In this document: in pieces, positions 15,993-63,998 of the stretch
How positions within the stretch are numbered: the stretch's first letter is position 1
How the letters are laid out: each line of letters opens with the position of its first letter
Source of the DNA: a virus
Taxonomy: Duplodnaviria > Caudoviricetes
Direction: 5' to 3' (one strand)
Virus record (IMG/VR): IMGVR_UViG_3300031993_000016
Length of the DNA: 64,000 nt
Notes under the pieces: generated by a model
Databases searched by the model: none
Told to the model about the DNA's origin: nothing
What the model saw: only the letters and a program-made list of their open reading frames with translations
Made by a program: the position numbers and the translations under genes

Positions 15993-16481
15993 TTAATACT
16001 GTGCACCACCATCAGCAATATCAGCAACTTCTGCATCATCATCCCCAGAACAACGTTTAAGCAGCTTTGTTGCCATAGCTCTAATCATTTCGCCACCACG
16101 CTTTTCTACATCTTCATCAGATTCATCTTCGCCTTGTTGTTTATATGTCGCAGTATCACTAGCTGTATTAGACCCATCAGGTGATTTCATATCAAATCTA
16201 ACCGAAACATAATCTTCGTCTTCACCTAATCTTTTAACTAACATCTTATATATAGGGCTTTCATCCCAATCCTCAATATCACCTGCAGGCATAATATTCA
16301 AAACAACATGTTTAGGAAGTGACGCAGCTGCTTGACCATTACCAGATTCATCTGCAGCAGCTTCTGCCCATTGGCTGATTATATCTAAGCTATGCTCTGC
16401 ATGGTTGAAAATAGATCTTAATAGTCGAGACACTACATCAAGAGCACCTGCTTCAATTGGATACTTAACTAATCGTTTCAT
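15993..16481 (-). CDS. Hypothetical acidic protein starting MKRLVKYPIEAG
   Basis: Start at 16481 has a GAGGTG RBS; the longer ORF-track start lies within a terminator. Confidence 0.7.
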   Translation of the reverse strand: MKRLVKYPIEAGALDVVSRLLRSIFNHAEHSLDIISQWAEAAADESGNGQAAASLPKHVVLNIMPAGDIEDWDESPIYKMLVKRLGEDEDYVSVRFDMKSPDGSNTASDTATYKQQGEDESDEDVEKRGGEMIRAMATKLLKRCSGDDDAEVADIADGGAQY

Positions 16482-20452: not shown

Positions 20453-22597
20453 TTAGGATCTAGAGGCCCACTCCCATGTAATAGTACCAGAATCAAATAC
20501 TTGTACAAATCCATGCTCAACCATTATCTGTACTTCTGTCTTGTTTAAATCAATTGTGTCGTCATGAAGGAATCTCTTAAGATTTCGTTTCTGAGCATTG
20601 ATTCTGTGATATGCAATATCTGTCATTGTATCTACCCATACATAATTAGGATCCGATCTTCGTATTTCTCTAAATCCTAATGTTTCATAAAGAGTACCCT
20701 TTGTATGCGCTCTATCCGAAAACGAACGAATTTGAGTGGGTGAATAATGTTTGATGAAATATTTAAATAACTTGCTTGCACCACCGACTACCGAAGTATC
20801 TAATTGTGAACAAAATCTAACTAATTCATAACAATTTGATAAATCTGAATCATCGGTACCGATAGTATTTCGCATCTTACCAAAGGTCATCAATGAAACT
20901 AACTCATTTTCATAATACAGCCCTAATCTTATAGAAGCACCTGCAGCACCCTGTCTGTGATTAATTTGTAAAAATTTTCTAGCATCAGAAGATGATACTT
21001 CTTGAACCTTGCATTTTCGAGCATATATAGTATGGCTAGAATCATGTATGAGATTCTTAAGCATTGATATTATTATATTTTGTCGATGAGTCCACTCATA
21101 ACCGAATATATGGAATAGAAATATTCCTTTATCTTTACATTCAACTGATTTATCATAATGATATCTAGGATATTTTGGCTCTGAACCCCAAGGATCTCTT
21201 AAAGATGAATTATGTGTTACTGTAGGATTAAACTCGATTGCTACGTTGTATTTGGGTAGAACTATATCTAGCTCTTTATTATGGAGAATAGTTCTATCAT
21301 GCCGTTTGATTTCAATAGTTGGATTAATTTGTTTTAGTATACTTACAATATCATCTTCACCTGTAGACAACGTAAACTTTATGTAATCTTGCAGACCTAA
21401 TACATTCACCCAATATGATATTGTAGTAGAATTTACACCTAATGCTTCTTCGAGTTCGTGGTATGCAGGAACGTGTGAAAATGATGTTAAATAAGTTTTA
21501 GGGTCATCTAAGAATCTCAGCCACTCGTCTACTTTAGCTGGATCAGATATTTGGTTTTGCTTCCAAGCTTTTAATTGTGAGTATTTATCTACACCAAACT
21601 TAGCTTTGAATCGTTCATGCGCATGCTGCTTACCAACTTCAGAACCTAAATAAGTTGTAGCACCATATCGCTGCATACAAGTTTCGGCTGACTTAGCTTG
21701 TACTTCAGGTGATTGCATAGCATTGTCTACATTGAAGCGTTTTTGTATAGTTTGCTTAGATTTAAATCTTACGATATCAGATGCAATGGCCTCTTCTACA
21801 TTATACACAGATAAGTTTGTTTTACGCCGTTTAGCTACAACTTCGGGATTATTTGCAGGATGTGCATATCCAGTTTTCTGTAGATAGCTTTTCTTATACT
21901 GCTCAATTATTTCTTGAGATTGAAATGGATTCAATACATGATAATGTTCAAACAGTGTAGCTTGTTGCTTTTTCTGAATCTCTGGATTCTGCATAGGCCA
22001 CGCTGCACCATATTTCTTTACATTAGTATCTATAGTTTTTTCGATATATTCTGCGGTACGTGTAAATGATGTATCATCATATCGTTCTAGCATTGTAGCT
22101 TGCATTTTTGCAACAACTTCAGGATTTTGCATAGGATGGTCATATCCTGTTCGTTCTTTATATTTCATGAGTGCTGCTTTACGTTTCTCCGGATCTTGAA
22201 AAGGGTTACCATTTTGAAATCTTAGTTTAAGCATACACTCCTTAGAACAAGTAACTGCATGCTCAACTATACTAAGATCTGTAGTAAATAATTTTCCACA
22301 TATCTTACAAGGGATTTCGTGTATAGATTTGCAAAATCGTTGCGTATTAGATTTAGGTTGAAATGGTTCTCCGCATATTTCACAATATTTTATCACACTA
22401 GCATATCGATTGATTGCACTCAATTTGTTTGTGCATTCTGTACTACAAGCTTGTCTTGTATCATTTTTAGAACATTTAGCTTCAAATTGTGAACCGCATA
22501 CAGTACAAGTTCTTATAATGAGCTTACCACAATCTAATTGACGGGATGATTTAGGTACAAATAATTCACCGCATATTCTACATCGTTTTTCTTTCAT
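20453..22597 (-). CDS. Zn-finger repeats + KYG repeats + Vsr/PD-(D/E)xK-like nuclease + GNAT/Mom-like domain (Hef-like endonuclease)
   Basis: CxxCG..F.P repeats; [KR]YG...P[MF]Q repeats; ELDIVLPKYNVAIEFN; YARKC...NHRQG...ELVRFCS...GGASKLF...SDR...LYETLGF. Confidence 0.8.
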   Translation of the reverse strand: MKEKRCRICGELFVPKSSRQLDCGKLIIRTCTVCGSQFEAKCSKNDTRQACSTECTNKLSAINRYASVIKYCEICGEPFQPKSNTQRFCKSIHEIPCKICGKLFTTDLSIVEHAVTCSKECMLKLRFQNGNPFQDPEKRKAALMKYKERTGYDHPMQNPEVVAKMQATMLERYDDTSFTRTAEYIEKTIDTNVKKYGAAWPMQNPEIQKKQQATLFEHYHVLNPFQSQEIIEQYKKSYLQKTGYAHPANNPEVVAKRRKTNLSVYNVEEAIASDIVRFKSKQTIQKRFNVDNAMQSPEVQAKSAETCMQRYGATTYLGSEVGKQHAHERFKAKFGVDKYSQLKAWKQNQISDPAKVDEWLRFLDDPKTYLTSFSHVPAYHELEEALGVNSTTISYWVNVLGLQDYIKFTLSTGEDDIVSILKQINPTIEIKRHDRTILHNKELDIVLPKYNVAIEFNPTVTHNSSLRDPWGSEPKYPRYHYDKSVECKDKGIFLFHIFGYEWTHRQNIIISMLKNLIHDSSHTIYARKCKVQEVSSSDARKFLQINHRQGAAGASIRLGLYYENELVSLMTFGKMRNTIGTDDSDLSNCYELVRFCSQLDTSVVGGASKLFKYFIKHYSPTQIRSFSDRAHTKGTLYETLGFREIRRSDPNYVWVDTMTDIAYHRINAQKRNLKRFLHDDTIDLNKTEVQIMVEHGFVQVFDSGTITWEWASRS

Positions 22598-22706: not shown

Positions 22707-24644
22707 TTGCCACAGCATATCTCAGAAAATATAAAACGAATATGTAAAGGTTGTAATAACGAGTTTAAACCGCATGCTAGAAAGCAATTTTACTGCGGTG
22801 AACTTCGTGTGTTTAAATGTAAGAATTGCGGGAAAGAGTTTGAAGCTATATGTAATAGTAGTGTTAAAGCTACATGTTCTGCAAACTGCCAAGCGGAGTA
22901 TATTAAAACTAGACGGAAAGCTTCTGCAGCTAAATTGATTAAAATCTGTAAATGGTGTGGCGAAGAATTTCATCCCGAGTCAGTTAGAGATGCATATTGT
23001 AAAAATATACATTATCAGAAATGTGTTATATGTGGCGCACAATTTGAGATTGATGTTCGGCGAGATCCTTACGTCAAAACTTGTTCAGACAATTGTAGAT
23101 ACATATATGCATTGCAACACCGTGATATTCCTGCAGAAACTCAAAAGTTGAAACAAACACTGCTTGACAAATATGGTGTAGATAATCCTATGAAAATTCT
23201 GGGTACTGTAGATAAAATCAAAGCTACAAATAACATGAGGTTTAATACAGATTGGTATACACAGACGGATGAATATAAAGAACGTGTTAAAGTAACAGAT
23301 CTAGAAAAATATGGAGTAGATCATCATCTGAAATCTGAAGAAGTTATCAATAAACGCATAGCTACTACTCAAAGTCGATACGGTTCTGATAATGTGTTTT
23401 CATCAGAATACGGCAAATCTAAAGTAAAGCAGCGAATGAAGGAGTTATATGGAGTAGAAAATCCATCCCAGTATTTTGAATTTAAGCGAAAAGCCACCGC
23501 TAGTGCAAGAAATTCAAAGTTAGAAATAAAGATAATAGATTTATTCATTAACTATGACATTGAATTTGAGCATCATCGTTTCATTAGCAATAATGATGTT
23601 TCACATGAATTTGACTTCTATCTACCAAAATATAAGATACTTATAGATGCAGATGGTTTATATTATCATAGTTATTTAAATGACCCTGACGGAGGTCGTG
23701 TAAATGATTATTATGATGATATAAGAATAAGTTTAGTTCCTGAGGATCATATGTTTTTCTTGCTTGTAGAAGGCTCTGAAGAGGCACAAGTTAAAGAATT
23801 AGTTAATATATTAGAGCAGATAGATTCTAACATATTCAGCTATGATTCATATTTGTTCAACTGGTGTAGAAGTATCGATTTTCCATATCCGCGATACCCG
23901 GACAATAGGATGCAGAAAGATTATAAACACTTATGCCAATGTGATGTTACAACTTATAATCCAAAATCAAGGTTAGGTTCATCTATTATTGACCAATTCC
24001 ATCGTTCTATATATGATGCGCACGTAGGCAATAATCTGTCACCGGTTGAAGCTTGGTATGATGATAATAAACTAAAACAAGTAATCAAAAACCGACTCAT
24101 ATATAAAAATAATGTCAACCCTTTTAAAATAATGAGAGGTTTCAACATCAGTAAAATATGCCCAAAAATTTCAATATTCAATCCAGTTCTTGCTAGATAT
24201 TTGACAACGAAATATTTAGATTCATATAGTTGCGTATTTGACCCATTTTCAGGATATTCAGGTAGGTTGCTCGGTGTAGCATCGGTAGGTAAACAATATA
24301 TTGGACAAGATTTAAATAATACGGCTGTAAAAGAGTCAAATCAGATAATTGATTATTTAAATCTAATCAACTGCTCAATAACAAATGTTGATATCTTACA
24401 AGATATAGATACAGAATACGAATGCTTACTTACCTGTCCACCATATAATAACAAAGAAATCTATAATGATGAACAAGAATTTAAATCTTGTGATGATTGG
24501 ATTGAGCTGATTTTAAATAAATACAAATGTAGACGATATGTATTTGTAGTAGATAATACGTCACGATATACAGATCATATTGCAGAAACTTTGCAGTCAA
24601 CTTCGCATTTCAATACAGTTGTAGAAAAAGTAATAGTGCTTTAA
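22707..24644 (+). CDS. Zn-finger repeats + KYG repeats + nuclease-like domain + amino-methyltransferase domain
   Basis: Probable TTG start at 22707 behind AGGAGGT; EFDFYLPKYKILIDADGLYYH; SAM motif FDPFSGYSGR; motif IV-like TCPPY; only convincing plus-strand gene. Confidence 0.8.
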   Translation: MPQHISENIKRICKGCNNEFKPHARKQFYCGELRVFKCKNCGKEFEAICNSSVKATCSANCQAEYIKTRRKASAAKLIKICKWCGEEFHPESVRDAYCKNIHYQKCVICGAQFEIDVRRDPYVKTCSDNCRYIYALQHRDIPAETQKLKQTLLDKYGVDNPMKILGTVDKIKATNNMRFNTDWYTQTDEYKERVKVTDLEKYGVDHHLKSEEVINKRIATTQSRYGSDNVFSSEYGKSKVKQRMKELYGVENPSQYFEFKRKATASARNSKLEIKIIDLFINYDIEFEHHRFISNNDVSHEFDFYLPKYKILIDADGLYYHSYLNDPDGGRVNDYYDDIRISLVPEDHMFFLLVEGSEEAQVKELVNILEQIDSNIFSYDSYLFNWCRSIDFPYPRYPDNRMQKDYKHLCQCDVTTYNPKSRLGSSIIDQFHRSIYDAHVGNNLSPVEAWYDDNKLKQVIKNRLIYKNNVNPFKIMRGFNISKICPKISIFNPVLARYLTTKYLDSYSCVFDPFSGYSGRLLGVASVGKQYIGQDLNNTAVKESNQIIDYLNLINCSITNVDILQDIDTEYECLLTCPPYNNKEIYNDEQEFKSCDDWIELILNKYKCRRYVFVVDNTSRYTDHIAETLQSTSHFNTVVEKVIVL

Positions 24645-24758: not shown

Positions 24759-26225
24759 TTAGAATACGCCGAGGATCTTTCCAGAAACTACGGTGTCTGG
24801 GTTGATGACTTTCATGCCGTACATTGTTGCGTAACCCTGCTGTACAGAAGCATTTGCAAGACCAATTGCATCTGTATTGGTTAACGGCATATATTCTCCG
24901 AACAGAGCTGAGTTTCTTCTGATATCCTGAGACTTACAAGCCATTACCCATGTATCTGGGTTGTAGTTAGGATCGCAATAGATCTCGAAGTTGTCAAGCT
25001 TTCCGAGTCTGTAAGGACCTACGTTATCTGTAGCAGTATCTGCTACAAATCCGTTGATCATGCTGATGTAAGAAGCTACGTTTGTACCAACTACAAGTCT
25101 GTTTGCCTGAGCAAGTCTTGTTGCCTGATAGATAGATGAAGCTGCCTGATTCAGCTTAAGCTTGAACATGTTGAGATAATCTGAAGGTACTACAGAACCT
25201 GTAAGTACTGGAGATGCATCCCAGTTGAACTGTGGCTTGAACTGAGCTGCTTTGAGGAGCTCTGCAAATCCTTGTGTATTGATCTCAGCTGTGAGCTCTG
25301 CGAAAGCTGCTTCTTTAGCGATATCAGCGATGTTGCTGCCGTACTCCTGCTGAGCTGCAAATGCAGAATAGATTGACCAATAGCAAGCAAGCTCATGTGC
25401 TTCTGCTACGAGGTTAATCTCATCGAGCTGAAGATATCCTTTAGCCATCTGAGCGCCGTAATCATATCCATATCCACCGTTACCAGGTGTTCTAGGTCCT
25501 ACGTTCTCGTTGTCGTACTGATATGTAGCCTTTACTGAGTTACCAGCTGCAGGTGAAAATGTACCAGCATCTGTGCTGATCATACCTGTTGAATAATCAA
25601 TGTATCCTACAGGTGTTGTGCTACCAGCTGCACAAATATTTCCATTACCATCGTCTACGTAAGATGTAACTGTACCAGCTGCATCATACTTGATTGTAAC
25701 TGTGTTCGGGAGGATTGGAGTATACATGAACATCATGTTATCCTGAATCTCTGTATCTTCAGCTACAACTTCATTCTTTACAACACGTCCTGTGAAGTTA
25801 GGATCAATACCCTGACGGTTTGCAAATGGACTTGAAAGAACGTCACCGGCCTTAGTCTCACCCTTTGTGTTCTCAGCAATGAACTTGAAGTAAGGGATGA
25901 GCTGCTGACGAGATCTCATTGCTACTGAACCAAATACGTCCAGGATGTAAAGCTTCTGAACGAACATTGGGAGGAGCTCAAGAAAATCAGGTCTTGCCAT
26001 GATGTTTGTTGTGTTAGTAGCTGCTGTAATTGTAGCAGAACGCTTGATGTTGCTCTGGAGCTGACGAGTAAAAGCTCTCTGCTCTGGTGTGAGCTTTGCC
26101 ATACTTGCCATTACAGATGACTGAGCCTGACGTCTCTGTACACCTGATGTAACAGATGTAGAAGCAGTTACAGGTCTACGAGCAGCACTGATAGGCATTC
26201 TACGAGTAGTCTTTCTAATAGCCAT
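24759..26225 (-). CDS. Major capsid protein (T4 gp23-like)
   Basis: Directly after the protease gene; ELTAEIN, FGEYMPL...QGYATMYG gp23-like motifs; basic propeptide; strong codon bias. Confidence 0.88.
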   Translation of the reverse strand: MAIRKTTRRMPISAARRPVTASTSVTSGVQRRQAQSSVMASMAKLTPEQRAFTRQLQSNIKRSATITAATNTTNIMARPDFLELLPMFVQKLYILDVFGSVAMRSRQQLIPYFKFIAENTKGETKAGDVLSSPFANRQGIDPNFTGRVVKNEVVAEDTEIQDNMMFMYTPILPNTVTIKYDAAGTVTSYVDDGNGNICAAGSTTPVGYIDYSTGMISTDAGTFSPAAGNSVKATYQYDNENVGPRTPGNGGYGYDYGAQMAKGYLQLDEINLVAEAHELACYWSIYSAFAAQQEYGSNIADIAKEAAFAELTAEINTQGFAELLKAAQFKPQFNWDASPVLTGSVVPSDYLNMFKLKLNQAASSIYQATRLAQANRLVVGTNVASYISMINGFVADTATDNVGPYRLGKLDNFEIYCDPNYNPDTWVMACKSQDIRRNSALFGEYMPLTNTDAIGLANASVQQGYATMYGMKVINPDTVVSGKILGVF

Positions 26226-26262: not shown

Positions 26263-27726
26263 TTATATTGTTACGAGGCCATCATCATCTACGTCATCAA
26301 TAACATCGATTAACTGTGTAGTTTCAAGTATTGGTTGTTGACGTACTGTAGAACTTCCGATTATGGATTCAAGTTCTTTTACAGATGTGGTTGAAGTCAC
26401 TCGCACATCTTCGAGGTGAACACCAAGTGCACTTGCATATAATGAAGCATATGCATTTTGATAGTCCTCTATCAATGCAGTCGCTGCTGACACCTCGTCT
26501 TTAAGCTTCTTAATCTTTGCATCCAGGTTAGATGTCCTCTCTTCAGCATTCGTTGCTGCGGTGACGGTTTCACTAAGTTCCGAGCGAAGATTGGAAATGA
26601 CAGAATCTTTTTCTTGAATGTCATTAGCGGTGGCTTCTATCCTCTGTTTATATTTAAGGTTATCCTTCAATATACGATCATTTTCCATTTTTAATCTACT
26701 AGAAGCAGTAATCAATTGAGAATTTTTCTGCTCTAATCTAGTATTTGCTGCGATCAATTTTGCATTTTCTGATTTCAATTTACGTGAAGCTGCTTGAATT
26801 GTTTTATATGCAGTGATTGATTTTGCAAGTTCTGTTTCATAATCCTGTGTCTGGGCAGCTGTTATTCTACGAATTGAATCTATTTTACGAGCAGAATCTT
26901 TGGTAAATTTTCTTAAATTTGTACTTGCTGTAAGCAATTCAGACTCAAGAGTTGTGTTTTTAGCTTTTTCTGCTAAATATAGCTCCATAACACCTTCTAA
27001 TTGCTCTTCAGTTATATCAATGTCATCTTCAATGATCGGATCTAGATCATTAGGGTCAAGCAATTCAGCCTTTCTATCCTCAATCATCTGATATTCGTCA
27101 GATTGTCCTGCAAACTGTGATTGAACTAAGTCAAGTGTTTCGGCAGATGTAATTTCAGATAAGTTGGCTTTAACTGCTGCGCATACTGCTTGATATTTCT
27201 TACGCTTCTCTAAATCAGTTGAAGCTGCAATCTCTGTAAATGTTGGAATAGCTTCTTTATATGCAGGAAACGATACAAGATCAAATCCACGAAATACAAA
27301 TGTATCAGGGTCAACGGAATTGTCGATAATGTCGCCAGCGCCTCTAACAGATATTCCGAAAGTAACTCCGGCATCAATGAATGATTTAATTACACGACCT
27401 ACAGGAGTATCAATGAGATCAAATTCACCATAAACTTTACCGTCATCTGCAATATGACCTTCTCGCATGATGATGCAAGCATCTTTAAATTCTTGACAAT
27501 TTGGGTCTTCTGGATGTCCTGCGAATCCTAAATACCACCCGTTTTCAATTGCTTGTTTATAGATGTCAGATGCAAATACATTCTCCCATACTTCTCGAGT
27601 TATGTCTAACCCATTCTCGTTTGTAATATTAGCATCGGCACACATACCCGAAAAGTGACCAATGACAGTCGGCTTCTTATTAGCAACATCTGCTTCCACT
27701 TTATTAATCTTACTCAAACATATCAC
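26263..27726 (-). CDS. Prohead protease (T4 gp21-like) fused to a coiled-coil scaffold
   Basis: GHP, DTPVGR, GISVRG.G, FDLVSFPA motifs; long heptad C-terminus. Confidence 0.88.
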   Translation of the reverse strand: MICLSKINKVEADVANKKPTVIGHFSGMCADANITNENGLDITREVWENVFASDIYKQAIENGWYLGFAGHPEDPNCQEFKDACIIMREGHIADDGKVYGEFDLIDTPVGRVIKSFIDAGVTFGISVRGAGDIIDNSVDPDTFVFRGFDLVSFPAYKEAIPTFTEIAASTDLEKRKKYQAVCAAVKANLSEITSAETLDLVQSQFAGQSDEYQMIEDRKAELLDPNDLDPIIEDDIDITEEQLEGVMELYLAEKAKNTTLESELLTASTNLRKFTKDSARKIDSIRRITAAQTQDYETELAKSITAYKTIQAASRKLKSENAKLIAANTRLEQKNSQLITASSRLKMENDRILKDNLKYKQRIEATANDIQEKDSVISNLRSELSETVTAATNAEERTSNLDAKIKKLKDEVSAATALIEDYQNAYASLYASALGVHLEDVRVTSTTSVKELESIIGSSTVRQQPILETTQLIDVIDDVDDDGLVTI

Positions 27727-55220: not shown

Positions 55221-55700
55221 CTATTCCTCTATATCCCAACGCCATGAGTCAAAATTTTCTTCAAATGTAGCATCATTGCATATGGATACGTCTGCCGAAC
55301 CTCGCTTTGCATATATGATAGATGTGTTAGGATTATCTTGAATACATACTAAGATATTAGATCTTCTTACACCTACAAGTGAATCACCTGGTGATAATGA
55401 TAATGTTGTACCATCATCATATACAATGTAGTACCATTCGTCTTCTTCAACATAATCATCACTGTGATAATTGTATAGTCCATTTTTCTCTGCATAAGAA
55501 GCAGGCATCAACCACTTGCGTACCTCAGCTAATGACATCTTTTCAAATATACTGTATGTATCAGCTTCAAAAGCAGATTTGCCAGGTTTATCAAGCCATC
55601 TTGCGAAATCTGCGATTACAGCTGCGTTGTGAGCTTCCCATTCTTCTTTTGTCATATTCAAGTAGTTTGTCTCGATATCGGACTGGATGTATTTTTTCAT
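55221..55700 (-). CDS. Leader-family protein (MKKYIQSD)
   Basis: RBS and shared N-terminal motif. Confidence 0.8.
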   Translation of the reverse strand: MKKYIQSDIETNYLNMTKEEWEAHNAAVIADFARWLDKPGKSAFEADTYSIFEKMSLAEVRKWLMPASYAEKNGLYNYHSDDYVEEDEWYYIVYDDGTTLSLSPGDSLVGVRRSNILVCIQDNPNTSIIYAKRGSADVSICNDATFEENFDSWRWDIEE

Positions 55701-55703
55701 ATA

Positions 55704-56009
55704 CTACACCTCTTTGAGCTGGTCTGTGACTGCTTTCTTGAACTGACGGTATGAGATTTCGCTGTCATCAGCTGCTCCTATGACTGTTCCGTCGTCATAC
55801 ATGTATCCTCCAAACATGTGGTCAACCATATATCTGATTTCATCACGGATGTCTGATGCTTCGTAATCGTTTACTTGACAGAATTCTTTGAAAGAATCGC
55901 ATTCCTGCTCTTTCATATCTTTTCTCCATTCATCTACTATGTCTTGAATTAGTTTCTGCATAGCAGGTGTGAATTGAGCTTCTTCAGCTGCCTTAATATA
56001 TCTTTTCAT
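55704..56009 (-). CDS. Leader-family protein (MKRYIKAA), paralogue of 57444-57737
   Basis: TPAMQKLIQD...EASDIR.EI.YMV shared with the paralogue. Confidence 0.85.
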   Translation of the reverse strand: MKRYIKAAEEAQFTPAMQKLIQDIVDEWRKDMKEQECDSFKEFCQVNDYEASDIRDEIRYMVDHMFGGYMYDDGTVIGAADDSEISYRQFKKAVTDQLKEV

Positions 56010-56074
56010 ATATCATGTCCTCCTGCATGTACTATAACGAATCTATAGAGATGCTATAGTACCTGCAACCTGAT

Positions 56075-56306
56075 TTAATTTAAAATATGTTTCGGATAGT
56101 AACTATCACCACGAAATAATGAGATAAACACAGTAGCCCTAAATTTTTCATCGAGGTCTACGTAACACCTAAAAAACAACAAGGTCCGATGATTTATCTA
56201 CAGTATATTCAATAACATGTGCAGCTAAATATCTTTCAAATACATCAGATTCATATGATCGAAGGTTTAAAGTCCACCAAAACTTTGTTGCATCAATTGA
56301 TCGCAT
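56075..56306 (-). pseudogene. Frameshifted small gene (MRSIDATKFWW...)
   Basis: GGAGGTG RBS and class I motif; stop follows a T6 run at 56171-56176; removing one T extends the ORF to ...YYPKHILN*. Confidence 0.55.
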
Positions 56307-56425
56307 AGTAACTACACCTCCTTCGTGTATTATAACGAAGCTACAGATTTTTCTATAATTATCTGATCGCTTAGCTGTAACACATAAAATGAGTTCATAT
56401 GTAAAATTATCTTCTAATTTTCAAT

Positions 56426-57331
56426 CTATTCAGCTATATCATATCTATTTACATGCTGTTTAGCCCAATAGATTTTATAGATTTCATTGACAACTTCTCT
56501 TAGATCATACTGATTTAAGTGATTATCATCTGCCCACGCATATATATCGTCAATCTGCTTCTGAACATTAGGATCATTGTATCTAGTAGATCTGCGATTA
56601 TTAACAGATTTAGCTTCCACTTCTTGCTGTGCACTACTTAAATCATTTGCATATGTACTTAGTATAAATGTTTTTAGCTCTAACGCAGCATCTACTATGC
56701 TATCATCTGCATCATACGGATATGGTTTAGACGCTACTGCCTTATCTTTATGATACGACTTCAAATAATCATGAACCTTTTTCTCGGCTGCCTTTACAGT
56801 TTTAGGAAAGTATCTTCGAAGTTGTTCATCAATCTGACCTCCATGAACTAATATACGAAATAATCCATCTTTAGAAGGATAGAACTTATCATCCCCTACG
56901 GACGTAATTATGTCATAGTTCCTTATATAGATTGTATCCTCAAATATATGCCAATCGGAATTCAATGGATCAATATCATAGAAATCAAATACACACTGAC
57001 TTGCAGGGTCATGGACCATATTTAGAAAGATTTGAGTAACTGCGTGTATTAACTGTGTATCTGACGAATAACTTGAAGGGTCTATTTGTAGTTTAGATAG
57101 TTCTGTAGCCCATGTACCTACAAAATTGATATTCTGATTAGGCAACTCACCTACAAAATATTTTGTTTCTGGGCCGGAATCAAACTCGCAAGTTATGCAA
57201 AACACATGCATATCACCTATACACTCACCTACATCTTCAACTGTGCATTTAGTCGACGGCTTTCGACCAGCATAGTTGCGATTATATTCGCTTTCATATG
57301 TGAGCCTTGTAGATTTAATATATTTTTTCAT
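56426..57331 (-). CDS. Leader-family protein (MKKYIKST)
   Basis: AAGGAG RBS, 301 aa. Confidence 0.8.
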   Translation of the reverse strand: MKKYIKSTRLTYESEYNRNYAGRKPSTKCTVEDVGECIGDMHVFCITCEFDSGPETKYFVGELPNQNINFVGTWATELSKLQIDPSSYSSDTQLIHAVTQIFLNMVHDPASQCVFDFYDIDPLNSDWHIFEDTIYIRNYDIITSVGDDKFYPSKDGLFRILVHGGQIDEQLRRYFPKTVKAAEKKVHDYLKSYHKDKAVASKPYPYDADDSIVDAALELKTFILSTYANDLSSAQQEVEAKSVNNRRSTRYNDPNVQKQIDDIYAWADDNHLNQYDLREVVNEIYKIYWAKQHVNRYDIAE

Positions 57332-57443
57332 GTAGTCTATCTCCTTTTATGACATATTATCTTACATATAACATAACAAATTTACCTACGAATTAGAGCG
57401 TGGATTTCATATATCTGTCCCCTGTCTATGTGCTATAACGAAG

Positions 57444-57737
57444 CTACAGAGCTGCAGTAACTTGCTTTTTGAATTCTCTGTAAGAGACTCCAGAACCATT
57501 TGAAGCTTCTACATATGATCCGTCATCAAACATTAAGCCACCATACATACGATTAACCATGTAATCAATTTCTTCACGTATGTCAGATGCTTCCCAATCA
57601 TTTGTCTGTACAAACTCTTTCCAGGTTTCGCACTCCATTTCTTTCATGCTCTTTTTGAAGTCATCGGCTACATCTTGGATGAGCTTCTGCATAGCAGGTG
57701 TTAAAGATTCGGTAGATGATTTGATATACCCTTTCAT
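57444..57737 (-). CDS. Leader-family protein (MKGYIKSS)
   Basis: Paralogue of 55704-56009. Confidence 0.85.
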   Translation of the reverse strand: MKGYIKSSTESLTPAMQKLIQDVADDFKKSMKEMECETWKEFVQTNDWEASDIREEIDYMVNRMYGGLMFDDGSYVEASNGSGVSYREFKKQVTAAL

Positions 57738-57749
57738 GATAACCTCCTA

Positions 57750-59120
57750 TCACCCTACGCCGAATGGATGAACGCTATCGCCATATCCATAAGAATCTTC
57801 ATAGAAGTATTTGCAACCGTTTTCAACTTGCTTTTCTGCTTCTGCTATAAGCCAATCAAGTTTGTAAGGACATCTAGAAAAATTCTCCCTCAATGCCGTA
57901 AGCAATTCTGGTGTAGCTGCTTCTAACAATTTCAATGCAAGTTTCTTTGTAGGGCACATTATAGCTACATCGGTCGGATACTTCTCCTCATATTGAAACC
58001 ATTTTTTAATGGCACTTACAGGGTTATCACATCTGAATGAAAGATCGTGTCCGCCATGTACGAGGTAATTATACTTACCATATGGTGACCAATCATCATC
58101 GTCCTCTTCATCAATATCTGTATCACTTGTAATGCCTTGAGGTGCTAATTCTCTGAGGTCGTAGTAATCAAGTTCATCAGTATTAAGTACACCATCTAAA
58201 CAGATGTATGTGCCCCAAGTACCTTTGTCGTTCTGACCTTCTTGTACTTCTAATACATTTAAGTCCTTTGGAATAGTACCAGGACCAATTCCGTGTGTTG
58301 TAAAGTACCAATACTTTCTTTCTTCATAGGGTCTTACGTCTGAATATCGGTTAATTTCACCGGCAGATTCAATTGGTAATGATTCAGAGCGGTCAAACAT
58401 GTCTGTATGTCCTACAACAGGACCAACATAGTCCTCAGGCCAGAAATGTAAGATGATTGTATCTCGTGTTGCAGTACCTTCGCATTCAAAGGTCAAGACA
58501 GGTTCTCCGCTTATACTATAACTGTCCGGGTCAGAAGAGTCTACTCGGATAATCTCAACTTCTGTTCCAAGATCACACTCAGCAGCATCTTCTGTAACCT
58601 TAACAATGTCGCCTACTTTCAGTTCATCAGCAGTAACTGCTCCAGGAGTACGATATGGATCTACCTTATACTTAGTAAATGTAGCAAGGTCAAAAGGCTT
58701 ACCATTTTCAATAGCCCAGTTAAGTTGATCCTCTTCACTGATAGATGAATGAATATAGTCGTCTGGTTCAGGTTCAATAGTTGACGCATCGATGAATTTG
58801 TCAGAACCGTGTCTTGCGATGTACTCACGTACATCTATCAAATTTGGATGTTCTTCGAGCCATTCATCTCTGAATTCAGTGTCACCTGCGAATTCATCTA
58901 TGACATCAATGATTTCACCGCCGTCATATTCTTCAGGATAGTCACGCTTAAGTATCTGGTCTGCATACCACCATTCGTCTTCACCATCAGGTACCCAAAC
59001 ACCACCTCCAGATTCTTTACCATCAAAAGTCACCCAGAGGATATTCCAATAGGTGTAACCTTCTGGGCGATCTTCCCAAGTATCATCAATGTAATCAGAA
59101 GAACTTATATATCGTTTCAT
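57750..59120 (-). CDS. Leader-family multi-module protein (MKRYISSS) with a DarA_C-like module
   Basis: Acidic modules separated by IDAS, IHSS, IESA, ITSD; YWYFTTHGIGPGTIPK...LNTDELDYYDL. Confidence 0.8.
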   Translation of the reverse strand: MKRYISSSDYIDDTWEDRPEGYTYWNILWVTFDGKESGGGVWVPDGEDEWWYADQILKRDYPEEYDGGEIIDVIDEFAGDTEFRDEWLEEHPNLIDVREYIARHGSDKFIDASTIEPEPDDYIHSSISEEDQLNWAIENGKPFDLATFTKYKVDPYRTPGAVTADELKVGDIVKVTEDAAECDLGTEVEIIRVDSSDPDSYSISGEPVLTFECEGTATRDTIILHFWPEDYVGPVVGHTDMFDRSESLPIESAGEINRYSDVRPYEERKYWYFTTHGIGPGTIPKDLNVLEVQEGQNDKGTWGTYICLDGVLNTDELDYYDLRELAPQGITSDTDIDEEDDDDWSPYGKYNYLVHGGHDLSFRCDNPVSAIKKWFQYEEKYPTDVAIMCPTKKLALKLLEAATPELLTALRENFSRCPYKLDWLIAEAEKQVENGCKYFYEDSYGYGDSVHPFGVG

Positions 59121-59168
59121 AAGTCACCTCCATATGTAAAATAATGTCCTAACATTATGTAAGGTTCA

Positions 59169-59630
59169 TCATTTAAAAAAGTAGAAGAAAGAATTCGGAC
59201 TAGCTATTGGGAGTCCTACATCTTCTACATCGTCATCTATTGTCAGATCTTTAATAGCTTCTACAAGGAATCCATAAGGCTTGTTTGGTTTAACCTTAAC
59301 GAGATATTTATGACCTTTGACGAATCCACAAGCACCATCTTTACCTGTATAAGTTCTTTCTACATAATCTGTAGGTAATCCATATTCTGAATCTTCTGCA
59401 GCAGGTGCAGTAGATGGCTGCATCAACGGTGATTTCTTTCCAAGTTTAACTCCGTTCTTTCTGCATTCTGCACATCTCGGAGTAGGGTCTGTTAAATACT
59501 TTATTTCAACGGGCTTACCACAAGTAGGACACGGACGATAGTGAATATCATCACAGTATCTCTGCTTTGGATTTCTTGGATGAAATAGTTTTCCACATTC
59601 TTTACAAGTTTTCTGTATGTCCATAAGCAT
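59169..59630 (-). CDS. Zinc-finger protein
   Basis: CKECGKLFHP...QRYC...H...CPTCG, same repeat type as the 20.4-24.6 kb pair. Confidence 0.78.
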   Translation of the reverse strand: MLMDIQKTCKECGKLFHPRNPKQRYCDDIHYRPCPTCGKPVEIKYLTDPTPRCAECRKNGVKLGKKSPLMQPSTAPAAEDSEYGLPTDYVERTYTGKDGACGFVKGHKYLVKVKPNKPYGFLVEAIKDLTIDDDVEDVGLPIASPNSFFYFFK

Positions 59631-59639
59631 TATACCTCC

Positions 59640-60071
59640 TTAGTATTCGAAATTATCTAATGCAGGATTACCAGTTAACTGAAACACTCTGTAATGAGGT
59701 TCTGTAATAACATCATATCGTTTGTTATCTATTTCAAATTCTTCAGCTATCTTGCTAATTAAATCAGCATCTGCAGCTACAGATTCGCTACAAATGATTT
59801 CATACACCTGAGCTCTGATGCTGTAAACAACTCTTCCTCGTTCAATGCATCCGAACCCTTTATTTACAATTGACTGAGCAGATTCAGGTAATTGATTCAT
59901 AACAACATCTCTCCACTCTGTCATATGATTCTTCGTATTGCTATACTGGATGTACCCTCTATCATCTACGCCATCATCAAGTGGAACGCATTTTCCAATT
60001 ATTTTATCTTCATATATCCACCATATACCAATTAGTCCGTCAGTATAGCTTGACTTAATGTATCTTTTCAT
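59640..60071 (-). CDS. Leader-family protein (MKRYIKSS), paralogue of 60079-60456
   Basis: Start at 60071 with GAGG RBS; GIWW...H..EW...RGRV...HY. Confidence 0.8.
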   Translation of the reverse strand: MKRYIKSSYTDGLIGIWWIYEDKIIGKCVPLDDGVDDRGYIQYSNTKNHMTEWRDVVMNQLPESAQSIVNKGFGCIERGRVVYSIRAQVYEIICSESVAADADLISKIAEEFEIDNKRYDVITEPHYRVFQLTGNPALDNFEY

Positions 60072-60078
60072 ATTAACC

Positions 60079-60456
60079 TCATTTCTGCGGAACGTATCCG
60101 TCATCTAAATGACATTTGTAATGGTTGCTGTTATCATAATTAACGATGGGTTCAGTTCTTAGCCCAAACTGTCTTTTAATTTCAGGTATCATTGAATCAT
60201 CAATGTTTGGATTCATATAAATTACTGGCTGCCCATTTGATTTAAATTCTACTCTACCACGAGGATAGTAGTCAAACGGTTTATTCCTATGTTCTTTAGG
60301 GGCAATTTCTTTCCACAAGTTACGGTGATTATAAGTACTGCCCGATTTAGCAATACCTATAGTACTACCTTCATAATAAGGGAATGCAAATAACTCTCCA
60401 TCTATCACCCAAAATACTCCATTTGATTCTTCAGCAGCTTTGATATATTTCTTCAT
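60079..60456 (-). CDS. Leader-family protein (MKKYIKAA)
   Basis: GVFW...H..LW...PRGRV...HY. Confidence 0.8.
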   Translation of the reverse strand: MKKYIKAAEESNGVFWVIDGELFAFPYYEGSTIGIAKSGSTYNHRNLWKEIAPKEHRNKPFDYYPRGRVEFKSNGQPVIYMNPNIDDSMIPEIKRQFGLRTEPIVNYDNSNHYKCHLDDGYVPQK

Positions 60457-60465
60457 GTGAACCTC

Positions 60466-61263
60466 CTACAATGTAGCAAGCTTCAACGGTTTTACTAAAA
60501 CTCTAAGATGGTATCTCTGGATATTCCAACCTCCGGCATCAATTGTTTCTACCTCTGCACTACCATTCTCACCTACAACTATACCATTGAGTGCTTTTCC
60601 ACTCCAATGTATGTCAGAACAATCTATGATAGGGCCGGTGATGTTGTATACTCTATTATAAAGATCGAGTAACCAATCATCTGCAGATTTTTCATTCATC
60701 TGTCTGAATTCTTCATCTGTATGCTTGAGAGATTCTTCCTTTGAATATGAATAAAGATTTCTCCACGCTCTGCTGAATTCACGATATGCTTTCATATCAA
60801 ATCCACCATATCCGTCACGCTTGTTAACCTGATATTCTTCTTCCATTTCTATTTTTCTCTGCTTCATGCGCTCACGAGCGTTTATATCCCACTGTGTCCA
60901 AAGGTCTACGAGTTCATCCCTAGCTTCTTTAAAAGCTTCCGGAATTTCTGTCTGAAGCGTTTTCTCTACTTCGAGCTGTCTTTCAAGACGACCTCTCCAA
61001 TTATCTGCAGTCTTCTGAGCTTCTGCAAGTCGCTTTTCTGCATTCTTTGCATCACTCAACTTATCTTCGTACTCGCATATTGTCCAGTACGCATCTTCAT
61101 GATTACCATCTGTATAATCGCGCCTATTAAGTGTCCAACCATTCTTATTGATGATTTCAAGCTTTTTCTGAGCCTGAGCTTTATGACGTTCTATAGTCTT
61201 CTGAATCTTTGCTACATTTGCTTCAGCCTTCTCAAGGCGTTCTCTTAAATCTATACTATTCAT
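60466..61263 (-). CDS. Coiled-coil phage protein
   Basis: C-terminal LNG...G.A.VETI.AGGWNIQRYH.RVL motif. Confidence 0.8.
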   Translation of the reverse strand: MNSIDLRERLEKAEANVAKIQKTIERHKAQAQKKLEIINKNGWTLNRRDYTDGNHEDAYWTICEYEDKLSDAKNAEKRLAEAQKTADNWRGRLERQLEVEKTLQTEIPEAFKEARDELVDLWTQWDINARERMKQRKIEMEEEYQVNKRDGYGGFDMKAYREFSRAWRNLYSYSKEESLKHTDEEFRQMNEKSADDWLLDLYNRVYNITGPIIDCSDIHWSGKALNGIVVGENGSAEVETIDAGGWNIQRYHLRVLVKPLKLATL

Positions 61264-61276
61264 ATACTAATCCTCC

Positions 61277-62590
61277 TTATGAATTAACTGCATCGAAAAA
61301 TGTATCAAGAGCTTCATCTACGTCCTTGGTGCCGGTTTCATGCCCTTCACTATTCTTAGGCTTTTCTGCATACTTAACTCTGCATCTTGTAAGCCATGTC
61401 TGCTTAACTCCGTTGTACTCATCTAACTTCTTAATAGTTCCGGTTATAGAAACAACTTCTTCTCTATCATTATCTCTGATTCCTGATGAGCTATCCCACA
61501 TGATTACGTTACCATTGGTATCTACTATCTTATAACGAATTGTAATACCATAGTCAGTCTCCCAACTTGTTATGATTGAAATCTCACAATCACCAGTAAG
61601 TGTAACTCGTTGACCTACTTCTCCGATGTAGTTAGAAATTTTAGCTTCTGCTTCATGAGCTTCAGCTCTTCTATCTGCTTCAGTCTTCTTCTCAATGTAC
61701 TTATTATATGTAGGAATAATAGATACAGCGTAGCCGAAATTCTTAGCCTGGATGTATTCAGAGTCTACAATGACTTTAAGATTATGCATGTAATCTGAAT
61801 TGTCTTCTGAATCCTTAACCCACTTCATTGCGTCTTCTACATAACTGATGAGTTCTGGATCGTTGTAATCCGGGTTGAATCGAGTTCTATAAGTTTCTAT
61901 TGCTTCTTTATAAGCAGGCATAAGTGAATGTGGGTTGATGTCGTACTTAAGAGATGTGTGTGTCTGTACTCGTGTATTCATCTCATTCCTTGGGCCGTCC
62001 CAAGATGATGAACGATAGCCGATATGATCTACTATATCTGCTGCATGCTTAAGTACGTCTACTGTCCTGAAATATGGTGCTGAATATCCACCTTCATAAG
62101 GAGCTTCGCCTTTGATAAGCTCATCGAATAATGCGATATATGCTGCAGCTGCTTCTGCATCAAATCCATGTGTGAAATCGCATAAGCAAGAAGATCCAAC
62201 CTGTTTGTATTCATTAGTGTCTTGATTATAGATAAGGTATGTGTCCTTGCGATGGCGGATTGAATGACAATGATCGCAAGTTGGTTCGCAGTTGAAATAC
62301 TGCTCAGGAACAGGAACTTCGTCTATGAGCTTCCTGACGATATTGCCGTTATCATGATGCTCAAGAGTTGCGATGAATCTCCATCCGTTGATCTTTGCTG
62401 TGCCTTCGCATTCAACTACGATGAATCTACAAGTCTGCTTAGAACCATCTTCATTCTTCACTTCTTTGAACTCTTCACTTACTTCACGATAAACAAAATC
62501 GCACCCGTACTTATTACACTTAGTACGAATGCGAGTAAGCTTCTTCTGAAGTCTTTCCATGTTATCTTCAAGAATTAAATATGTATTCAT
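61277..62590 (-). CDS. Early phage protein with Zn site and C-terminal OB-fold
   Basis: CDHC...R.R..TY...VGSSCL; YIGEVGQR...GTIKK..EYNGVKQT.LTRC; start at 62590. Confidence 0.78.
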   Translation of the reverse strand: MNTYLILEDNMERLQKKLTRIRTKCNKYGCDFVYREVSEEFKEVKNEDGSKQTCRFIVVECEGTAKINGWRFIATLEHHDNGNIVRKLIDEVPVPEQYFNCEPTCDHCHSIRHRKDTYLIYNQDTNEYKQVGSSCLCDFTHGFDAEAAAAYIALFDELIKGEAPYEGGYSAPYFRTVDVLKHAADIVDHIGYRSSSWDGPRNEMNTRVQTHTSLKYDINPHSLMPAYKEAIETYRTRFNPDYNDPELISYVEDAMKWVKDSEDNSDYMHNLKVIVDSEYIQAKNFGYAVSIIPTYNKYIEKKTEADRRAEAHEAEAKISNYIGEVGQRVTLTGDCEISIITSWETDYGITIRYKIVDTNGNVIMWDSSSGIRDNDREEVVSITGTIKKLDEYNGVKQTWLTRCRVKYAEKPKNSEGHETGTKDVDEALDTFFDAVNS

Positions 62591-62668
62591 ATGAGTACCT
62601 CCTTGCTCTTGCAATCTTGATATATGTACTATAACGAATTCACCATATTATAGGTGTTATTGTATACA

Positions 62669-62697
62669 ATTATAGACGGATTGCACCAAAAAGTCAA
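62669..62697 (-). promoter_or_regulatory. Sigma-A/70 consensus early promoter
   Basis: TTGACT-N17-TATAAT with an AT-rich upstream element. Confidence 0.85.
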
Positions 62698-62790
62698 GTA
62701 AAATACAAAAATTCTTTTTAGAAATTTTAATATTTCCATAAAATTTTCTACTCACCCATCTATGAATACAATTATGTTAATTCGTCAAGT

Positions 62791-63063
62791 TCACGCATAA
62801 GGTGCAGCCATGTCTGTTGAAGCCTTCTCCCAAAGTCGGGTGAATATATCATACTCATCATCTTCAAATATGTCGTCTTCTACAGCATCTGCAAATGCCC
62901 AATCAAAATACTCTTTTGAATCTCTTGTAAATGTTGACCAAGCTTCTTCAGGTGCATCAATGTCAGGTGGGGCAGGTGATTCAGCTACACACTTATATAC
63001 ATACTGCTTTTGCTCATCTGTAACATTTGCAAGAGAATTAGTTGATTTGATATATCGTTTCAT
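62791..63063 (-). CDS. Leader-family protein (MKRYIKST)
   Basis: GGAGGT RBS. Confidence 0.8.
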   Translation of the reverse strand: MKRYIKSTNSLANVTDEQKQYVYKCVAESPAPPDIDAPEEAWSTFTRDSKEYFDWAFADAVEDDIFEDDEYDIFTRLWEKASTDMAAPYA

Positions 63064-63081
63064 GGTATACTTTTTACCTCC

Positions 63082-63615
63082 TTATGCATTGAATTGTATG
63101 TTGAAATCGAATTCATCTAAAAATTCTTCTAATTTATCTACAACCTGACCTTCGATGTCTCTTTCAAATACATCATCAGGATCATAATAGAATCTGAATG
63201 CATCAATTTCCTGGGTCTGCCCTGGTCTAGCAGTATTGCCTTTGAAACTTCCTTTAAATATAGGAATCTCAAAGCAATCTTTGCCCCATTTAATGTCATC
63301 AACTTCATAATAAGTTGTGTCTGTGCAGAATGATTTAAGGTGCTCCCTTATTTCACGCTCTGCTATATTTAACCAAGGCATAATATCTATGTTATCTGCA
63401 GCATCAGAGCTGCTCTCTATCGTCCTATTCTGATACTTATATCTAAGATCATCCATCTGCTTTTTATATTCAGCTTTCTTCTTTTTAAGTTCAGCTTGTT
63501 GCGCTTTTGGCATGTGTTTAGAAATCCTGACAGCCTTATAATTCATATAAGCTTCATCTAGATCTTTAGGTGAATCAACAACAAAATCTTCAGCTGTTTT
63601 AATATATCGCTTCAT
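63082..63615 (-). CDS. Leader-family two-module protein (MKRYIKTA ... TIESSS)
   Basis: GGAGGT RBS; basic helical module then acidic module. Confidence 0.8.
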   Translation of the reverse strand: MKRYIKTAEDFVVDSPKDLDEAYMNYKAVRISKHMPKAQQAELKKKKAEYKKQMDDLRYKYQNRTIESSSDAADNIDIMPWLNIAEREIREHLKSFCTDTTYYEVDDIKWGKDCFEIPIFKGSFKGNTARPGQTQEIDAFRFYYDPDDVFERDIEGQVVDKLEEFLDEFDFNIQFNA

Positions 63616-63624
63616 TATTACCTC

Positions 63625-63783
63625 CTATCCAAAGTAATCAGGTAATGCCTCTGGATTACTTTCAAAGTAATCAAGCATCGCTTCAATTACTTCTGCATCT
63701 GTTGCCAACCCACTTGGATCTAAAACATTAGAAAGATTATCAAGTCGATCTACATCTGTGTCATATATTTGTATTGATGTCAT
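63625..63783 (-). CDS. Small protein, possible ribbon-helix-helix
   Basis: Start MTSIQIY at 63783 with GGAGGT RBS. Confidence 0.6.
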   Translation of the reverse strand: MTSIQIYDTDVDRLDNLSNVLDPSGLATDAEVIEAMLDYFESNPEALPDYFG

Positions 63784-63809
63784 GAGATACCTCCTATTCA
63801 CTTGCATTT

Positions 63810-63998
63810 TTAATATATCTTTTCATATGCTGCTAGCACCTCATCTCTTGTCTTAAATGAATCTGCAATCTTATTTTGCTTCTTCATTATGTCAACAGTA
63901 GCTAAGATTGTGTCATCATCCTCTAAGATGTTATCTAGTGTTGCATTGAAGAAAAATGCTTTGTAGCCATCGGAATCTTCTCTTAATATGTTAAATCT
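63810..63998 (-). CDS. 3' end of a gene entering from outside the window
   Basis: Open frame ...RDEVLAAYEKIY*. Confidence 0.6.
   Translation of the reverse strand, partial: RFNILREDSDGYKAFFFNATLDNILEDDDTILATVDIMKKQNKIADSFKTRDEVLAAYEKIY

Follow-up and report, generated by a model that had tools for sequence, protein, structure and literature searches.

Why should nine neighbouring genes of one phage, whose products have little else in common, begin with nearly the same eight residues? The question is raised by an array in the IMG/VR virus record IMGVR_UViG_3300031993_000016, of which the whole 64,000-nucleotide stretch analysed here is referred to as the window. The window belongs to a large uncultured tailed phage of gut or rumen with ~37% G+C and transcription almost wholly from the minus strand. 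Its genes recognisable in Pfam and PHROG scans encode a Gp23-family capsid protein, a head-maturation protease, a tape-measure protein, a LysM protein and an amidase endolysin; for the genes at 9-20 kb, the PHROG scan gives a head-tail adaptor as the sole named product. Judging from sequence comparisons, we lean towards the view that the shared leader is a capsid-targeting signal and cleavage propeptide, and that the residue before the predicted cut has changed from Glu to Ala or Ser.

Tagged genes in the window

A six-frame scan finds M-K-x-Y-I at ten minus-strand positions between 55700 and 63826 and nowhere else in the 64 kb. Nine of these are gene starts (55700, 56009, 57331, 57737, 59120, 60071, 60456, 63063 and 63615), the same nine that the original prediction had picked out, and the tenth is a stub at 63826. 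Each of the nine lies at most 11 codons from the upstream stop and has a GGAGG/GAGG-type ribosome-binding site ahead of it. The array contains the following features.

63794-63826, minus: 10-codon leader stub, MKRYIKNASE-stop
63082-63615, minus: leader gene, 177 residues, MKRYIKTA; acidic cargo without known family (six-frame scan, family scans)
62791-63063, minus: leader gene, 90 residues, MKRYIKST; very acidic, isoelectric point (pI) 4.05
60466-61263, minus: 265-residue leaderless orthologue of a family that is tagged in four relatives
60079-60456, minus: leader gene, 125 residues, MKKYIKAA; distant paralogue of the 143-residue family
59640-60071, minus: leader gene, 143 residues, MKRYIKSS; the "GIWW" family
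57750-59120, minus: leader gene, 456 residues, MKRYISSS; four modules
57444-57737, minus: leader gene, 97 residues, MKGYIKSS; paralogue of the 101-residue gene
56426-57331, minus: leader gene, 301 residues, MKKYIKST; its own sequence is its sole homologue
55704-56009, minus: leader gene, 101 residues, MKRYIKAA
55221-55700, minus: leader gene, 159 residues, MKKYIQSD; degenerate leader, no Ala/Ser site at residues 7-8

The nine tagged proteins range from 90 to 456 residues, and Pfam and PHROG scans assign none of them to a significant family. Their sequences diverge beyond residue 8, with the two exceptions that had been claimed for them: the 101- and 97-residue proteins are clear paralogues, and the 143- and 125-residue proteins are weakly related through an intermediate. 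The stub carries a perfect MKRYIK, read in another frame within the last codons (Y-E-K-I-Y-stop) of the preceding 247-residue gene, and is probably a relic or scar of recombination at a leader.

Conservation and portability of the leader

Cultured phages offer little help with the array itself. Megablast of the array against GenBank phages gives no match, nor does tblastn of the 456-residue protein against phages, and the capsid proteins of Streptococcus phage GXN1, Bacillus phage HSE3 and Listeria phage LIS04 share just 26-28% identity with that of the window. A search of a literature library yields no paper with the leader strings and no proteomics of the clade. IMG/VR, in contrast to these, holds 58 loci with capsid proteins 57-79% identical to that of the window, and a degenerate DNA pattern of the leader matches 62 stretches there, many of which lie on contigs of the capsid-related loci. 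The set of tagged proteins described below comes from fetched sequence of these related uncultured phages, whose complete records span 159-254 kb. Two loci found through the neighbouring phrog_2319 gene, given as 445 residues long (L001 and L002), lack the leader and were rejected as close relatives.

Among open reading frames (ORFs) that start M-K-x-Y-[IV], the tag heads 177 non-redundant proteins in the fetched relatives, with the consensus M-K-[RKIL]-Y-[IV]-[KR]-[SA]-[SAT]. Position 3 prefers Arg over Ile, Lys and Leu, position 5 Ile over Val, position 6 Lys over Arg, position 7 Ser over Ala, and position 8 Ser over Ala over Thr. The information content stays above 2 bits across residues 1-8, whereas residue 9 and those after it carry ~0.5 bit at most. 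In shuffled sequence, a strict pattern that combines ribosome-binding site and leader has 0.00 expected occurrences. The original prediction had proposed scanning the genome and its relatives for the motif; besides its restriction to the array in the window, a looser pattern matches 25, 18, 26, 11 and 5 times in five whole relative records, always on the coding strand, and the reversed control gives 0 matches. A chance origin of the leader is excluded. The complete 162.8-kb genome G001 has the strict pattern on 21 of its 213 called genes and looser variants on several more; most of these lie in two arrays, the first situated between replication and tail modules and the other after the head genes.

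The signal lies in the peptide. In the 177 leaders Arg3 is encoded by AGA, CGA, AGG, CGC, CGT and CGG, Ser7 by TCN as well as AGT, Tyr by TAT and TAC, and Ile by ATT, ATC and ATA, and the 20 bases upstream hold a ribosome-binding site and nothing more. Use of both Arg codon families and both kinds of Ser codon, varied wobble positions and the bare upstream region therefore argue for selection on the peptide and not on a DNA or RNA element, as the variable codons in the window had first suggested. Conservation of the nucleic acid, whether as a recombination hotspot for cassettes or as a start-codon operator for a RegA-like translational repressor, is thus highly improbable. Frequent recombination at gene starts is suggested by the mosaic make-up of the array, with its homing-endonuclease-like zinc-ribbon genes, the stub at 63826 and the leaderless orthologue, but the variation is mostly synonymous and crosses codon families (AGA/CGA for Arg, TCN/AGT for Ser), and the upstream bases contain no further element.

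The leader also behaves as a separable module. Without it, the 177 proteins group into 135 BLAST families, 115 of them singletons, which bears out the idea of a portable tag. The leaderless 265-residue gene of the window adds a reciprocal case, in that it lacks exactly residues 2-9 of its tagged orthologues in four relatives. In the GIWW family, 71 of 83 homologues of the 143-residue protein (40-86% overall identity) open with an MK-type leader; next come a linker, variable both in length and in sequence, and the conserved domain. The AlphaFold2 (AF2) model of this protein is confident, with a mean predicted local distance difference test score (pLDDT) of 86.3, and residues 1-7 score below 50 and are disordered. 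Its fold has no recognised counterpart: Foldseek returns no match at an E-value of 0.001 or better, and a wide VIA search yields Z scores of at most 3.8, which is background. The GIWW layout, the low-confidence residues 1-7 and the leaderless orthologue together indicate that the tag is a separable module.

A peptide conserved at the N-terminus could act in translation. In E. coli reporter libraries, K or N followed by Y or I at codons 3-5 gives the top yield, largely independently of codon choice (PMC6920384). The leader has Tyr4-Ile5, and the capsid-targeting tag of phage T4 likewise begins M-K-x-Y. That Lys, Tyr and Ile at codons 3-5 serve only to raise early elongation, with no sorting role, is nevertheless improbable. 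Residue 3 is Arg in 126 of the 177 leaders, not Lys or Asn, and conservation reaches residues 6-8, past the ramp positions. The leader is also restricted to accessory genes: none of the abundant structural products identified in the window (capsid protein, protease, tape measure and endolysin) has M-K-x-Y-I. A ramp function for the first half of the tag is a real possibility.

Prohead protease and its scaffold-like half

If the leader is a propeptide, the phage should encode an enzyme whose sites resemble it. The relevant gene lies next to the capsid gene.

26263-27726, minus: prohead protease; gp21/S77 fold (residues ~19-178) joined to a scaffold-like half that is a coiled coil (Pfam, AF2)

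Peptidase_S77 (PF03420) matches the protein with 28.9 bits against a cut-off of 27. A search of PDB sequences with a profile of the protease domain found none. The AF2 model built from 37 orthologues has a pLDDT of 91.5, and its best match in the PDB is T4 gp21 (5JBL; E = 6e-7, template modelling score ~0.7, root-mean-square deviation ~2 Å, 23% identity); herpesvirus proteases come next. The presumed catalytic residues, His53 and Ser108, do not vary among the 37 orthologues.

The C-terminal 300 residues form a coiled coil that contains about eight [IVL]-x-A-[AS] sites spaced 14-25 residues apart, among them I-T-A-A, I-Q-A-A, L-I-A-A, I-T-A-S, V-T-A-A and V-S-A-A. In the window protein this half holds seven [IV]-x-A-[AST] sites against 1.16 expected, a number reached in 0 of 2000 composition shuffles. 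The scaffold-like halves of 48 distinct orthologues together contain 280 [IVL]-x-A-[AST] sites where 82 are expected (3.4-fold), and every one of the 48 exceeds its expectation. In the same 48 halves, the Glu motif of the T4 and phiKZ type, [ILVAGS]-x-E, shows no enrichment (563 versus 553 expected). With the predicted cut marked by an arrow, the consensus of the scaffold-half sites is [VI]-T-A↓S, and leader residues 5-8 (I-K-[SA]-[SAT]) fit, as a statistical match, the motif of this half and of the capsid propeptide. If the leader is cut there, a 7-residue peptide would be freed, and conservation ends exactly at P1′. The T4-like system of the original prediction is therefore recovered in part: a gp21-type protease and a gp23-type capsid protein are present, whereas the Glu motif is not enriched and the leader has no conserved Glu.

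Two relatives give empty searches for both protease and capsid protein. One contig with 15 tagged genes (G010) would count against a link between tag and protease; it shares cargo and tail genes and appears to end before the head module, and is therefore not counted as evidence. The other (G006) has a single match to the leader pattern, probably by chance.

Capsid propeptide and cultured relatives

The second expected substrate is the capsid protein.

24759-26225, minus: major capsid protein, Gp23 family (PF07068, E = 1.8e-19), with a propeptide of ~70 residues

Its propeptide contains four Ala-type sites versus 0.55 expected. The last, I-T-A↓A-T at residues 66-70, stands where T4 gp23 is cut, after its residue 65. 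In essentially all of the 49 orthologous ORFs listed, this last site takes the form [IV]-[TMN]-[AG]-A-T and lies just ahead of the conserved N-I-M-A-R-P-D-F.

LIS04 (Thornevirus), HSE3 and GXN1 provide a natural control, as they carry the same gene pair, a protease-scaffold fusion of ~560 residues followed by the capsid gene. In a joint alignment, T-I-T-A-A-T of the clade shares columns with A-L-L-E-T-T (LIS04), H-M-T-E-S-T (HSE3) and Q-L-L-E-S-T (GXN1), so that at P1, the residue before the predicted cut, the cultured phages have Glu where this clade has Ala. The Ala motif is not enriched in the scaffold halves of the two phages tested, LIS04 (2 versus 2.1) and HSE3 (1 versus 1.3), and the Glu motif is enriched in that of HSE3 (36 versus 26, p = 0.005). 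The leader pattern matches 1, 0 and 0 times in the LIS04, HSE3 and GXN1 records, and LIS04 has no over-represented N-terminal word. The first 12 residues include an Ala/Ser-type site in 11 of the 67 genes of the window and in 34 of the 213 in G001, where a control position gives 3 and 8; the corresponding LIS04 numbers are 7 and 11. The tag, the Ala-type scaffold sites and the capsid Ala therefore co-occur in the clade, and all are absent from its sister group.

This co-occurrence bears on a further explanation, in which the tag addresses some other partner or process, such as a degron that sets the time at which a host or phage protease clears these proteins from the cytoplasm, or a peptide that docks to a chaperone or to a modifying enzyme. 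Peptide conservation and portability would suit any common partner, and a sigma-70-like promoter and adjoining small, early-looking genes would suit early proteins that need later removal. Such a role leaves unexplained, however, both the 3.4-fold enrichment of [IV]-x-[AS]-[AST] in the scaffold half together with its presence at the end of the capsid propeptide, and the lack of the tag in relatives with Glu sites. Pfam and PHROG scans also reveal no candidate modifying enzyme among the neighbours of the array. We therefore consider another partner unlikely.

The 456-residue protein and other leader forms

The same short motif is met outside the MKRYIK leader. HMMER searches with the 456-residue protein define modules at about residues 121-245, 250-335 and 330-456, each of which recurs alone or in proteins of up to 1560 residues. 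Residues 250-335 (WYFTTHGxGPG) are 50-78% identical to such proteins, and residues 121-245 and 330-456 are matched by other protein sets than this one. Match starts cluster at residues 120-129, 250-259 and 330-344, and tag-like sites are located at these boundaries: I-H-S-S (123), I-E-S-A (250) and I-T-S-D (330). With seven internal sites in 456 residues, three boundary coincidences have a chance probability of ~0.003 by a rough estimate. In a pooled test of 115 HGxGPG modules, an upstream site is present in 20% versus 12% of control windows, and the signal is restricted to the HGxGPG subfamily with [VI]-D-T-G-L.

The module at residues 250-335 may be DarA_C-like. DarA_C (PF18789) matches the window protein weakly (E = 0.019), and five of five small homologues match nearly the whole profile with E-values of 1.2e-4 to 0.039, all under the 27-bit cut-off. 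A profile search of PDB sequences with this module found none.

Homologues of the 456-residue modules start with the MKRYIK leader in 20 of 150 cases. Others begin with a second leader, MKITHRKITAS, found on large multidomain homologues, or with a third, MKRKFTKYPIKAG, which directly precedes the HGxGPG domain in P0109; in further cases the module is internal to a larger protein and comes straight after [IV]-x-[SA]-A. The element common to all leader forms is [IV]-x-[AS]-[AST]. That the other leader types share only this element, and that it recurs at internal module boundaries, are two more points against a translation ramp. The window has one gene of each of the other types.

1-204, minus: gene start (TTG), MKITKITAS, second leader type
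15993-16481, minus: 162-residue gene starting MKRLVKYPIEAG, third leader type

Both had been listed in the original prediction among four looser variants, and they match other leader types borne by relatives of the same cargo. The variant at 56306 (MRSIDAT) is weak. That at 1991 (MKRVITST) opens a 24-codon ORF beside an IscB/HEARO element and may be a truncated leader gene. In a relative, locus L132 (1050-1445) encodes a 131-residue protein with three successive tag-like sites near its N-terminus (V-I-K-S-T, P-V-E-A-S and K-R-Y-I-K-A-A); the gene adjoins an MKKYIRSS gene and a 1192-residue MKITHKKITAS multidomain protein.

Cargo

Most tagged proteins resist annotation. Among 150 of them, Pfam recognises LRV/HEAT repeats in six, DUF5662 in two, and ART-PolyVal, S-adenosylmethionine lyase, GNAT acetyltransferase and a BspA-type leucine-rich repeat in one each, and the PHROG scan returns unnamed families only. 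The 301-residue window protein has no homologue other than itself, and atlas look-alike searches with it and with the 177-residue protein give no usable match. Head-packaged, injected effectors have standard examples in ADP-ribosyltransferases (T4 Alt), DarA and polyvalent proteins (PMC5512222), and some tagged proteins of the relatives look, by their predicted domains, like host-modifying, injected or anti-restriction effectors. The suggestion of anti-defence cargo thus gains some substance from ART-PolyVal, S-adenosylmethionine lyase and GNAT in the relatives, which is no proof for the nine proteins of the window, none of them with a significant family match. Overall, the cargo appears to be a fast-turning set, mostly acidic (median pI 4.75) and mostly without known family.

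Proposed pathway

In the reading we favour, residues 5-8 of the leader (I-K-[SA]↓[SAT]) would be a cleavage site of the phage's own gp21-type prohead protease, which in this clade would cut after Ala or Ser ([IV]-x-A↓S, herpesvirus-like) and not after Glu. Tagged proteins would enter the scaffolding core, as T4 internal proteins do through their capsid targeting sequence; because gp21-type enzymes act inside the assembling prohead, they should be there when the protease fires. Maturation would then remove the 7-residue peptide, and the tagged proteins would be retained in the head and pass into the host along with the DNA. M-K-R-Y may serve for docking, may help the early phase of translation elongation, or may do both. 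The 456-residue protein and other large multi-module proteins are possibly cut in the head at their boundary motifs.

Several points weigh against this pathway. The predicted Ala/Ser specificity is read solely from motif statistics and a single alignment, and every characterised gp21-type protease cuts after Glu (PMC5694885). Shuffling takes no account of the repeat composition of a coiled coil, which could explain part of the enrichment. Residue 7 of the leader is most often Ser, not Ala, many GIWW homologues have Thr or Pro-x instead, and the leader at 55700 (MKKYIQSD) lacks an Ala/Ser site. At least one family works untagged, as the leaderless 265-residue orthologue demonstrates. Ten to thirty or more tagged proteins for each genome would be a large number to fit in a single capsid, and the acidic cargo differs from the T4 internal proteins, which are basic. 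Finally, a near-consensus sigma-70-like promoter lies inside the array (TTGACT, 17 bases, TATAAT; 62697-62669, minus; 11 of 12 positions), which suggests early transcription of part of it.

We regard as plausible, if somewhat short of probable, a broader proposal: that a whole clade of large phages of gut or rumen Firmicutes has undergone the change from Glu to Ala/Ser in its protease, carries the 7-residue tag on 10-20% of its genes and ships dozens of interchangeable effectors in the capsid, the fused versions being polyproteins cut in the head. The effectors would include single domains that in other elements are fused as polyvalent proteins.

If the pathway is correct, the rule MKRYIK[SA][SAT] would pick out the proteins that an abundant group of uncultured phages injects and would point to new anti-defence and host-takeover proteins, most of them without a known family. 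The enzyme would be the first gp21-type protease with a non-Glu specificity, and would join phage and herpesvirus maturation proteases in function beside fold. The tag would be a very short cargo-loading peptide, usable for packaging foreign proteins in capsids. The contrast with cultured Thornevirus-like relatives, which have Glu sites and no tag, offers an experimental entry point.

Other elements of the window

In a 163.8-kb copy of the window genome, the array starts ~5 kb from the contig end and has 16 small genes ahead of it. One of these is SpoIIID-like (PF12116), which hints at a spore-forming Firmicute host. The sigma-70-type promoter at 62669-62697 (minus) lies upstream of the phrog_2319 gene, here given as 437 residues, and the leader genes after it. 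The octamer TCGTTATA is a candidate phage promoter element on sequence grounds: it occurs 14 times versus 2.7 expected, 12 of them on the minus strand, at positions that include 4175, 7691, 20443, 22640, 22675 (plus), 56033, 56331, 57434 and 62630. About half of the copies are intergenic, several lie 15-30 bases upstream of a ribosome-binding site, and the octamer is usually extended as TCGTTATA[AG]TACA. It precedes several leader genes and the homing-endonuclease genes.

A zinc-ribbon module (CxxCG...HY..C..CG) is shared by a 153-residue array gene (59169-59630) and the N-termini of two large HNH homing-endonuclease-like genes (20453-22597, and 22707-24644 on the plus strand), which adjoin the capsid gene; in most relatives, zinc-ribbon copies are located just downstream of the capsid gene. 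At the other end of the window, a HEARO (IscB omega) RNA (1714-1924, minus, 146 bits) lies upstream of a 410-residue ORF (380-1612). The unit (380-1924, minus) is flanked by the 23-bp direct repeat CCCACGACTCTAAAGAGTCGGGG, sits just after the 24-codon ORF at 1991 (MKRVITST...) and looks like an IscB-type mobile element inside the phage.

Comparison with known systems

The closest parallel is capsid targeting in T4, where the sequence MKTYQEFIAE loads internal proteins, is sufficient to load foreign ones and is cut once by gp21 (PMC5694885, PMC3012670). In T4 as here, a short N-terminal tag that begins M-K-x-Y heads accessory proteins that are otherwise unrelated and evolve fast, the protease has a gp21 fold, the capsid protein is of the gp23 type, and the tag ends in the presumed P3-P1 motif of the protease. 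The T4 cargo includes the anti-restriction protein IPI* and the ADP-ribosyltransferase Alt, which is packaged with its own propeptide. The T4 tag is 10 residues long and cut after Glu, as opposed to 7-8 residues and a predicted cut after Ser or Ala here; T4 has 3-5 tagged genes with basic cargo, compared with 9-30 or more and acidic cargo. In the present clade, moreover, the protease is fused to a scaffold-like domain.

Herpesvirus assemblin has the same fold and is likewise a protease fused upstream of a scaffold. The maturational proteases of herpesviruses cut at V/L-x-A↓S sites, which match the [VI]-T-A↓S deduced here; the likeness in specificity is probably convergent. No herpesvirus protease is known to load arrays of tagged cargo.

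In the giant phages phiKZ, 201phi2-1 and SPN3US, a gp21-type protease also trims many head-internal proteins, among them ejection and inner-body proteins, and SPN3US gp53 and gp54 are paralogues that share an identical N-terminal stretch (PMC5694885). Their propeptides are mostly at least 100 residues long, unlike the present leader, cleavage is at S/A/G-x-E, and processing is confined to ~8 proteins.

The polyvalent proteins that phages and conjugative elements encode (Iyer et al. 2017, PMC5512222) and DarA of phage P1 resemble the tagged cargo in their modules, with ART-PolyVal and the DarA_C-like module in common, and in their expected delivery with the DNA; the 456-residue window protein shares modules with multidomain proteins of up to 1560 residues. 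They differ in architecture, since most modules here are separate small tagged genes, and in the likely means of separation: the tag-like sites between fused modules suggest cutting by the head protease and not by a built-in peptidase.

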